The translations under genes were made by a program, and so were the position numbers. Shown here one piece after another: positions 9,786-10,541 of a DNA stretch of 23,815 bases. The notes beneath the pieces were generated by a model. It was not told where the DNA came from and ran no database searches. It saw only the letters and a list, made by a program, of their open reading frames with translations. Source of the DNA: a virus (taxonomy: Duplodnaviria; Heunggongvirae; Uroviricota; Caudoviricetes); the IMG/VR virus record IMGVR_UViG_2850796239_000008. One strand, written 5' to 3'. Positions within the stretch are counted from its first letter, which is position 1; each line of letters starts with the position of its first letter.

Positions 9786-10541
9786 ATGAGCATGAAACTA
9801 ATGGCAAAAGCAATGGAAATTAAAGTGGGTAATCCATTGCGTAAGCTGGTTCTGATTAAGCTGGCTGATAATGCCAGCGATCAGGGCGAGTGCTGGCCCA
9901 GCTACCAGTATATCGCTGACCAGTGCGAGATTAGCAAGCGTTCTGTGATTAATCATATTGCGGCGCTTTGTGAGTCCGGGCTGGTAAAAAAAATCACCCG
10001 GAAAGGTGAAAAAGGTAATACAAGTAATATCTATCTCCTTCATCTGGATGGTGCAGAAAATTTACCGGGGAATAGTGCAAATAATTCGCTACATTGTGCA
10101 TCAGATGCATCGGGTAGCGCAGGAGTTGCACCTGTTGCCAGTGCAGGAGTTGCACCCAGAACCAGTCACTCTTTTGAACCAGTCAATGAACCTGATGTTG
10201 GTGGATCTGCTGACGCAGATCCACAGGTCAGTCATCGCGCAAAAAACAAAATCGACTGGCAGAGGGTTCTGGACAGCTATCACGAAATCCTGCCTGAAAT
10301 GCCATCAGTGAAAATTCTGACGGATACCAGGAAAAAAAATCTGCGGACGTTCTGGCAGAAATTCGGTTTTGACCAGCAGCGATGGGAGTCCTATCTGCGA
10401 TACGTTGCTGAGAACTGTCGCTGGATGCTGGAAGATCGTCCCAATGGCAGCGGTGGGTTCTGGAAGCGTAAAAACCTGGATTACCTGATCACCGAACGGT
10501 GCTATGTCGCTGTCAAAGAGGCGCGGGCAAATGACAGATAA
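9786..10541 (+). CDS. Phage replication initiation protein, N-terminal HTH (YdaU/O-like), 251 aa
   Basis: N-terminal winged-helix-like region (LRKLVLIKLADNASDQGECWPSYQYIADQCEISKRSVINHIAAL); GAGG RBS; internal DNA direct repeats in the linker-coding region. Confidence 0.65.
   Translation: MSMKLMAKAMEIKVGNPLRKLVLIKLADNASDQGECWPSYQYIADQCEISKRSVINHIAALCESGLVKKITRKGEKGNTSNIYLLHLDGAENLPGNSANNSLHCASDASGSAGVAPVASAGVAPRTSHSFEPVNEPDVGGSADADPQVSHRAKNKIDWQRVLDSYHEILPEMPSVKILTDTRKKNLRTFWQKFGFDQQRWESYLRYVAENCRWMLEDRPNGSGGFWKRKNLDYLITERCYVAVKEARANDR
10117..10190. repeat. Iteron-like direct repeats inside the initiator gene (candidate replication origin)
   Basis: GCAGGAGTTGCACC occurs twice (10119-10132, 10143-10156; 24-bp period), followed by GAACCAGTCA twice (10164-10173, 10181-10190). 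Confidence 0.5.

Follow-up and report, generated by a model that had tools for sequence, protein, structure and literature searches.

The 23,815-nucleotide stretch of DNA analyzed here (hereafter the window; IMG/VR record IMGVR_UViG_2850796239_000008, Caudoviricetes) carries a prophage early region that includes a replication initiator gene (9786–10541, plus strand). Within this gene, the element at 10051–10192 (+265 to +407 of the gene) probably is the replication origin of the early module, written into the part of the gene that encodes the initiator's own linker; on sequence comparisons, we put the chance that this reading is correct at roughly three in four. The element has two parts: five phased, dyad-symmetric iterons; and, directly 3' of the fifth, a 37-nucleotide block that is nearly invariant among relatives. 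Comparisons across relatives establish both repeat types as functional DNA elements under purifying selection. An origin within an initiator gene is of a known kind, and in lambdoid phages is the textbook arrangement. The unexpected part is the invariant block, conserved irrespective of reading frame and placed at a module junction.

The initiator comprises 251 residues (756 nucleotides), as defined by its open reading frame and translation, a Pfam HTH_36 match, PHROG matches, and an AlphaFold model. It is divided into a winged-helix domain (residues 1–85), a disordered linker (about 86–150), and a C-terminal domain (about 150–251). The initial annotation noted two pairs of direct repeats in the linker-coding region and proposed a lambda-like origin there. 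Both pairs are exact: GCAGGAGTTGCACC occurs twice, in frame and 24 nucleotides apart (10119–10132 and 10143–10156), with no third copy in the 23.8-kb window; and GAACCAGTCA occurs twice (10159–10168 and 10176–10185) and nowhere else in the window. The peptide encoded, which includes GSAGVAPVASAGVAPRTSHSFEPVNEP, was translated correctly, and the repeats do fall between the winged helix and the C-terminal domain, where the predicted local distance difference test (pLDDT) score is below 50. What changes is the number and nature of the repeats. The two GCAGGAGTTGCACC copies belong to an array of five phased units, not two; and although both repeats had been called iteron-like, only the GCAGGAGTTGCACC-type units are lineage-specific iterons, whereas GAACCAGTCA is part of the family-wide block.

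By chance, 0.12 matches to GCAGGAGTTGCACC with up to two mismatches are expected in the window, and one of 100 shuffles gave two. This repeat widens to 17 nucleotides, AG(C/T)GCAGGAGTTGCACC, if one mismatch is accepted (10116–10132 and 10140–10156). The GAACCAGTCA pair is not significant by count alone (40 of 100 shuffles give at least two matches with up to one mismatch); its significance comes from its adjacency to the dyad units and its conservation in relatives. The two copies start 17 nucleotides apart and are read in different frames (aGA ACC AGT CAc and GAA CCA GTC Aat). A third, partial copy, GAACC, follows at 10188–10192.

The iterons are 15-base-pair units of the form GTGMA-N5-TKCAC, all on the plus strand and spaced 24, 21, 21, and 24 base pairs apart. 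Iteron 1 (GTGCAGAAAATTTAC, 10051–10065) has one right-arm mismatch to TKCAC and corresponds to the unit at −108/−105 in relatives. Iteron 2 (GTGCAAATAATTCGC, 10075–10089) also has one mismatch, and its homologue in phage SfV (AGTGCAAATAATTCACT) stands at the same offset. Iteron 3 (GTGCATCAGATGCAT, 10096–10110), again with one mismatch, falls on a peak of dyad symmetry centered at −56; iteron 4 (GCGCAGGAGTTGCAC, 10117–10131), the first GCAGGAGTTGCACC copy, on that at −35; and iteron 5 (GTGCAGGAGTTGCAC, 10141–10155), the second GCAGGAGTTGCACC copy and a perfect match to consensus, on that at −11. The pattern GTGMANNNNNTKCAC, with up to one mismatch, has eight matches in the window, five of them in the array; 3.5 are expected in the window.

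This architecture is common to about 100 non-identical relatives. When relatives are anchored on the first 10-mer, four or five units appear at 0, 24, 45, 66 or 69, and 87 or 90 nucleotides upstream. Across 37 diverse loci, dyad symmetry at −11, −35, −56, and −77 averages 4.86, 4.70, 3.86, and 3.16 of six pairs, against a median of 1.5. The sequence of the arms differs between lineages, which fall into at least six classes: GTGCA..TGCAC; GTGAC..GTCAC; GTCAA..TTGAC; TGCC..GGCA; GTAGGC..GCCTAC; and GGGGC..GCCCC. Arms of the unit next to the block covary, with GC in 26 and CG in 6 at d=5; TA in 23 and GC in 12 at d=6; and GC in 28 and TA in 8 at d=7. Slid controls give low scores at d=3, 4, and 6; at d=5 and d=7, some shifts reach scores just as high, because adjacent arm bases repeat. 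The peptides encoded by the iterons are unrelated between lineages (SAGVAP, SENSAP, GDTESP, SQKFLP, VGPEST). Fixed unit offsets, dyad covariation, and conservation at synonymous sites together lend support to the proposal of a lambda-like origin.

Might these elements act instead in the messenger RNA, where hairpins and a conserved unpaired segment would control translation, ribosome pausing between domains, or transcript stability, with no origin involved? The region does fold more stably than shuffled versions (z = −2.4; 5 of 200 shuffles are as good), the block is unpaired in the minimum-energy fold, and the elements always lie on the coding strand, although this orientation is forced upon any element within a gene. 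Within the GTGMA class, however, the fourth base varies independently between the two arms (C-G 20, C-T 22, A-G 21, A-T 15; Fisher p = 0.37). Such independence fits two degenerate half-sites for protein, and not a stem under selection, whether in RNA or in a cruciform; the frequent C-T and A-G mismatches in mid-stem are unfit for a selected hairpin. Moreover, no Rfam family matches positions 9600–10700 at an E value of 1 or better, and five phased palindromes, spaced by 21 or 24 base pairs and set beside a conserved repeat block, form the standard layout of an iteron origin. A function confined to the transcript is very unlikely. (No σ70 promoter was found in or around the block.)

The block (10156–10192, plus strand) reads CCA-GAACCAGTCA-CTCTTTT-GAACCAGTCA-AT-GAACC. 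Its first trace came from comparison of the window with SfV and the Pectobacterium phage ZF40: the latter has about 73% DNA and 60% protein identity to the window, and CCAGAACCAGTCAC-CTT-TGAACCAGTCAATGA is near-unchanged in a linker that otherwise cannot be aligned. About 280 related loci were examined in total. Of these, 160 were gathered with the initiator protein, the sources being species-representative genomes and viral contigs. Nearly all of the 160 contain exact GAACCAGTCA, which without exception lies on the coding strand, 350–440 nucleotides into the gene, with copies spaced by 17, 12, or 29 nucleotides. The hosts include Enterobacterales, Pseudomonas, Shewanella, Marinomonas, Cellvibrio, Microbulbifer, Gilliamella, and, with a variant sequence, Haemophilus. 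A Shewanella locus (L041) carries the variant 10-mers GAATCTGTCA and GAACCTATCA, and one from Gilliamella (L072) has four 10-mer copies.

The relation holds in the opposite direction. Among 118 viral contigs chosen only because they contain GAACCAGTCA-N7-GAACCAGTCA, 112 encode the helix-turn-helix (HTH) domain in frame upstream; five of the other six are cut by the contig end, and one has only a short upstream open frame. A 41-nucleotide query finds the block in 139 deposited phage genomes, and in almost every annotated record listed it is inside the initiator gene. These include phages of Vibrio, Stenotrophomonas, Aggregatibacter, Pseudomonas, Klebsiella, and Salmonella; SfV, ST64B, and ZF40; and the Shiga-toxin (Stx) phages 24B and Min27. 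The plasmid database PLSDB has the block in 15 records only, about ten of which are 34–54 kb, the size of phage genomes, the others being larger and some chromosome-sized; these records offer no evidence for the block as a plasmid replicon, and that idea was dropped. In five loci (L085, L086, L047, L064, L223), probably decaying prophages, the initiator gene is frameshifted or truncated while the iterons and block are kept; L085 reads DVWIC and stops after the block.

Conservation was measured in 32 sequences, no two of them more than 90% identical in amino acids over the HTH block. From −3 to +33 (CCA GAAYCAGTCA CTCTTTT GAAYCAGTCA AT GAACC), most bases are 91–100% identical; the exceptions are the C/T site, at the same position in both 10-mers (75%), two spacer bases (84%), and the AT spacer (69–72%). 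By comparison, the commonest codon accounts for only 51% of the codons used at conserved HTH residues (range 0.28–0.78). The C-to-T variant occurs in both frames, where it replaces Thr with Ile (copy 1) or Pro with Ser (copy 2). GTC is invariably followed by A, even though the codon that this A begins may encode N, K, I, T, or M. Meanwhile, the spacer between copies varies non-synonymously (SF, SS, PF, PS, SL). All three observations speak for the DNA, not the peptide, as the target of selection. Copies also change in concert: GAACC has become TAACC throughout the three copies in Haemophilus (L055, L070), and in copies 2 and 3 in Proteus (L027, L035), a pattern that favors a single factor reading all of them. 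Finally, 7-mers from the block are essentially confined to it within the surroundings of the module in relatives.

These same data bear on the simplest alternative, in which the repeats are a by-product of a low-complexity linker, arising through slippage or duplication of SAGVAP- and EPV-type peptides, and have no function as DNA. In its favor, the dyad units are spaced in multiples of three and encode repeats rich in P, S, G, and A, and a third 10-mer copy, where present, lies 12 nucleotides away in frame to give EPVxEPV. But the main 10-mers are 17 nucleotides apart and therefore in different frames, so that identical DNA encodes RTSH in one and EPV in the other, with no peptide repeat. Synonymous sites in the block are invariant, well beyond the codon usage of the HTH residues; the 10-mers stay fixed as the spacer residues change; and dyad symmetry persists across unrelated iteron peptides. 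We regard this explanation as extremely improbable. Nor do the repeats vanish from close relatives whose protein is otherwise identical, the outcome that the initial annotation named as contrary to its proposal: the opposite was found, and the DNA elements are better preserved than the protein.

The block also marks a boundary. DNA similarity of about 88% to many phages of Escherichia coli, Shigella, and Salmonella starts at the initiator start codon and ends at 10190–10192, and tblastn matches end at residue 136 in dozens of genomes. Judged from these limits, the start codon and the end of the block delimit a discrete mosaic module. Downstream of the block are found at least eight unrelated clusters of C-terminal domain, mostly with their own characteristic partner gene: a DnaB-type helicase (the window, ZF40); an IstB/DnaC-like AAA+ protein; a Phage_lambda_P protein (PF06992, E value 3.9e-58); a PerC-like protein (the SfV group); and others of unknown type. 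Pairing, a matter of genomic association, is mixed at times; for example, C-terminal cluster C0 occurs with partner N0 or N1. By analogy, the domain logic is that of lambda O and P: the N-terminal module would set origin specificity, and the C-terminal module would be matched to helicase delivery.

The gene named O in phage vB_EcoP_24B (L163; HM208303, 12548–13324) encodes a member of the HTH_36 family, not of the lambda O family. It contains three perfect GGGGCAGGAGCTGCCCC palindromes followed by the block, here with a degenerate first 10-mer, GAACCTATCA; the next gene is a large P of the primase-helicase type with a Gp4D helicase region.

Such exchange raises the question of whether the block is mainly a recombination linker, a patch of micro-homology for swapping N- and C-terminal modules with no direct role in initiation. 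Homology does end exactly at the block, by both protein and DNA comparison, and at least eight C-terminal types are joined there. However, selection for future exchange alone cannot hold 37 nucleotides near-invariant across many gammaproteobacterial genera, and a homology patch needs neither three phased copies, nor the concerted change to TAACC, nor a fixed distance from the last iteron. Breakpoints at this site follow more simply from a block conserved for another reason. An exclusive role in recombination thus appears unlikely; the block may passively explain where the joints fall.

The C-terminal module itself begins with a further structure. Nine nucleotides past the block lies a perfect palindrome (10+4+10), GTGGATCTGC-TGAC-GCAGATCCAC, with two GATC sites (10201–10224, plus strand). 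Palindromes at the same position, with compensating changes in their arms (CGTCTGC/GCAGACG, TCAGC/GCTGA, GATCAGC/GCTGATC), occur in five lineages with DnaB partners, including L003, L087, L090, and ZF40. Their recurrence, limited to these five lineages, is suggestive of an accessory origin element.

Which protein reads the iterons? In the otherwise conserved winged-helix domain, the variable columns are residues 49–53 and 55–56, the start of the predicted recognition helix. The helix S(K/R/E)RSVxNH is found with the iteron class GTGCA or GTGAA; SKRSVMRH with GTGAC; CSK(S/T)AV(K/R)xH with TGCC..GGCA; DRSTVR(K/R)H with GTAGGC; and xRSTVKxH with GGGGC..GCCCC. Helix motif tracks iteron class in two independently drawn samples, and no motif occurs with more than one class. 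This pairing supports, short of proof, the recognition of the iterons by the initiator.

Recognition need not mean initiation, and the initiator might bind the dyad units for autoregulation or copy-number control, by roadblock or handcuffing, with the origin elsewhere. Sites in its own gene could block transcription, and inverted repeats serve many Rep proteins for self-control. There is also one perfect match to GTGMA-N5-TKCAC beyond the array, GTGAATATCCTGCAC at 7873–7887, left of the cI-like gene; this may be a chance match or an outlying initiator site. Against this view, the surroundings of the module in relatives hold no other repeat array or conserved non-coding element; the segment from start codon to block moves as a whole and is joined to many helicase-recruiting domains, as expected if it bears the origin; and the parallel with ori-lambda is close. 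We consider control without an origin function to be unlikely. (The CI and Cro operators were also considered as the real target of the palindromes and rejected: a pattern search finds no iteron-like site in the cI-cro intergenic region, and the mosaic unit starts at the initiator start codon rather than within the immunity region.)

The origin reading suggests the following mechanism. Dimers of the initiator's N-terminal winged helix would bind the five iterons, with specificity provided by the N-terminal half of the recognition helix (residues ~50–57, SKRSVINH), as covariation indicates. The resulting nucleoprotein array may then act on the adjoining 37-nucleotide block with its three phased GAACC(AGTCA) copies; the block might serve for unwinding or helicase entry, or offer a second site to a conserved initiator surface. 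The variable C-terminal domain would recruit the partner encoded next door, here the phage DnaB-type helicase, as the association between domains and partners suggests. DNA signals can be written into this stretch of coding sequence because the linker peptide is disordered and tolerates change. More tentatively, it is possible that the block is a portable and previously unrecognized initiation signal: a sequence-specific unwinding or helicase-entry element, read by a conserved initiator surface or by a host factor present throughout the Gammaproteobacteria, and combined with at least five strategies of helicase delivery. These may be phage DnaB, a DnaC-like protein, a lambda-P-like protein, a primase-helicase, and no obvious partner.

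Several points weigh against assigning an origin to 10051–10192. Iterons 1–3 of the window have one arm mismatch each. Co-variation of helix and iteron may in part be linkage, since both lie within 300 base pairs and are co-inherited. In 31 of 32 loci, the block is the least stable 30-nucleotide duplex window within 400 nucleotides to either side (another minimum immediately precedes the iteron array), but these loci are not independent, for low stability follows from the invariance of the block; and at only about 57% A+T, the block is weak for a classical unwinding element. Neither DnaA boxes nor integration host factor (IHF) consensus sites are enriched near the block in the 32 loci; the best IHF-like match in the block, judged by eye, agrees at 7 of 9 positions. 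Profile comparison of lambda O with the initiator (hhalign) gives a probability of 1.2%, and Pfam finds no Phage_rep_O match at an E value of 0.01 or better; homology of the initiator to lambda O was thus not detectable. The searchable literature gives no description of binding, unwinding, or autonomous replication for this family, and the 10-mer, the block, and five iteron sequences appear in none of its microbial papers, although earlier mention in a subscription journal is possible. The paper on the 'Eru' replication regions of Stx phages contains no analysis of origins or iterons, and another, on O proteins and origins of Stx phages, has as its subject the lambda-type O proteins of P27 and 933W.

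The protein nonetheless has a clear family identity. Its N-terminus matches Pfam HTH_36 (PF13730; residues 17–67, E value 4.9e-13, 49.1 bits) above the gathering threshold of 25, and all homologues listed share this domain. PHROG families called 'replication initiation O-like' match at an E value of 2e-67, the name being a functional label only. In the AlphaFold model of residues 1–105 (mean pLDDT 76.7), helices span residues 17–28, 40–47, and 51–64, the last being the recognition helix, followed by a β-hairpin at 67–85; pLDDT is below 50 from residue 91, which includes the linker encoded by the iterons. Structural neighbors in the Protein Data Bank are generic winged-helix DNA binders: MarR, PadR, PerR, TFE, and DnaD-N. 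A sequence search of solved structures gave no relevant match. The protein misses the DnaD_N threshold (PF21984; 22.5 bits against a cut-off of 27), and Bacillus subtilis DnaD-N ranks only in the middle of the structural matches (rank 44). The family comprises 1383 protein clusters at 90% identity, mostly annotated just as 'helix-turn-helix domain-containing protein', with no origin marked.

How does the proposed origin compare with known systems? The four annotated iterons of lambda span +348 to +432 of O, and their starts are spaced by 20, 24, and 23. In both phages the origin would occupy the part of the gene that encodes the linker, flanked by a DNA-binding N-terminal domain and a C-terminal domain that binds the partner; the iterons are dyad-symmetric and about 20–24 base pairs apart (in the window, +265 to +370, with the spacings given above); a segment that melts easily in lambda, and may do so here, lies directly downstream; related phages differ in iteron specificity; and some members of the present family are paired with a lambda-P-like protein (PF06992). 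The differences are equally plain. The window's initiator has no detectable homology to lambda O; it has five iterons rather than four; the place of lambda's A+T-rich tract of about 40 base pairs is taken by an invariant block of 57% A+T, found family-wide regardless of iteron class; and the partner is a phage DnaB-type helicase, whereas that of lambda is a loader for host DnaB.

In phage P22, as in the window, the initiator gene (gene 18) is directly followed by that for a phage DnaB helicase (gene 12); its origin is reported to lie within the initiator gene, like oriL in gene 38 of SPP1. The N-terminus of P22 gp18 is described as lambda-O-like, which sets it apart from the HTH_36 initiator here. 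We know of no family-wide invariant block in the origins of P22 or SPP1.

Iteron plasmids such as pSC101, RK2, F, and R6K have repeated 13-mers in the unwinding element, bound as single strands by Rep or DnaA. Their iterons usually are direct repeats, lie outside genes, and are bound by Rep monomers with two winged helices. The origin proposed here shares with them a two-part plan, iterons followed by fixed short direct repeats in the least stable segment. It differs in that the sites are palindromic, suited to a dimer, and in coding sequence; the initiator has a single winged-helix domain; and the window has no DnaA boxes or IHF consensus nearby.

In this particular prophage the origin probably is silent. 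The gene for the DnaB-type helicase, with which the initiator's C-terminal domain presumably partners, is split by IS600 (IS3 family; 11488–12751, plus strand; 1264 base pairs, with GTT on both sides and its ends taken directly from the sequence), recognized by its transposase domains and by 99.9% identity to annotated IS600 copies; this split probably inactivates the module here. The 5' part of the gene (10504–11487, plus strand) matches Pfam DnaB and DnaB_C, and the 3' part (12752–13201, plus strand) was located by tblastn with an intact 476-residue helicase, residues 1–334 of which match 10504–11505 and residues 328–476 of which match 12752–13198. Related viral contigs keep the 476-residue helicase intact; one of them, L084, has the same origin sequence as the window. 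Baseplate and tail-fiber genes come directly after the early region (from about 15436); genes for head, terminase, or lysis are lacking in between, which marks the prophage as a remnant. The window comes from a prophage of E. coli O121: 2488 base pairs of it are 100% identical to NZ_CP119441.

Elsewhere, the window encodes an integrase (532–1767, minus strand), a Sak4-like protein, an exonuclease, an anti-repressor-like regulator, cI-like (8461–8937, minus strand) and cro-like (9034–9276) genes, and a YdaT-family gene (9273–9695). Between the last of these and the initiator gene is a terminator-like hairpin, GAACCTCCTCTGGTTC, with a T-rich tail (9706–9721). Within it is CTGGTTCTG, which is reverse-complementary to a portion of the 10-mer region. 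Related to this, CAGAACCAG is found on the minus strand at 9715–9723 and 9846–9854, and its three copies in the window compare with 0.2 expected. The extra copies were considered as sites of long-range pairing or binding and rejected: neither is kept in 31 non-redundant relatives. The first is within the terminator-like hairpin, and the second coincides with the LVL codons of the HTH domain, which vary in relatives. Both probably are coincidental.

The combination of phased palindromes followed by the GAACCAGTCA block would provide a DNA signature for annotating origins in thousands of prophages, and would help to separate replication-competent from decayed ones. It addresses a gap in origin annotation for a family whose block is found in 139 phage records, those of the Shiga-toxin phages 24B and Min27 included. 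The family also amounts to a natural experiment in DNA recognition: one winged-helix scaffold occurs with at least six iteron classes, the differences being concentrated in few residues of the recognition helix (N to R accompanies GTGCA to GTGAC). If the block is indeed a portable initiation signal, the natural swaps of iterons and helices would offer a ready-made recognition code for a winged-helix initiator. Moreover, the block stays conserved in hosts that differ widely in G+C content, and it coincides with the very junction at which C-terminal domains are exchanged. What reads it matters for two questions: how the opening of an origin is tied to helicase loading, and how recombination proceeds among mosaic phage genes.

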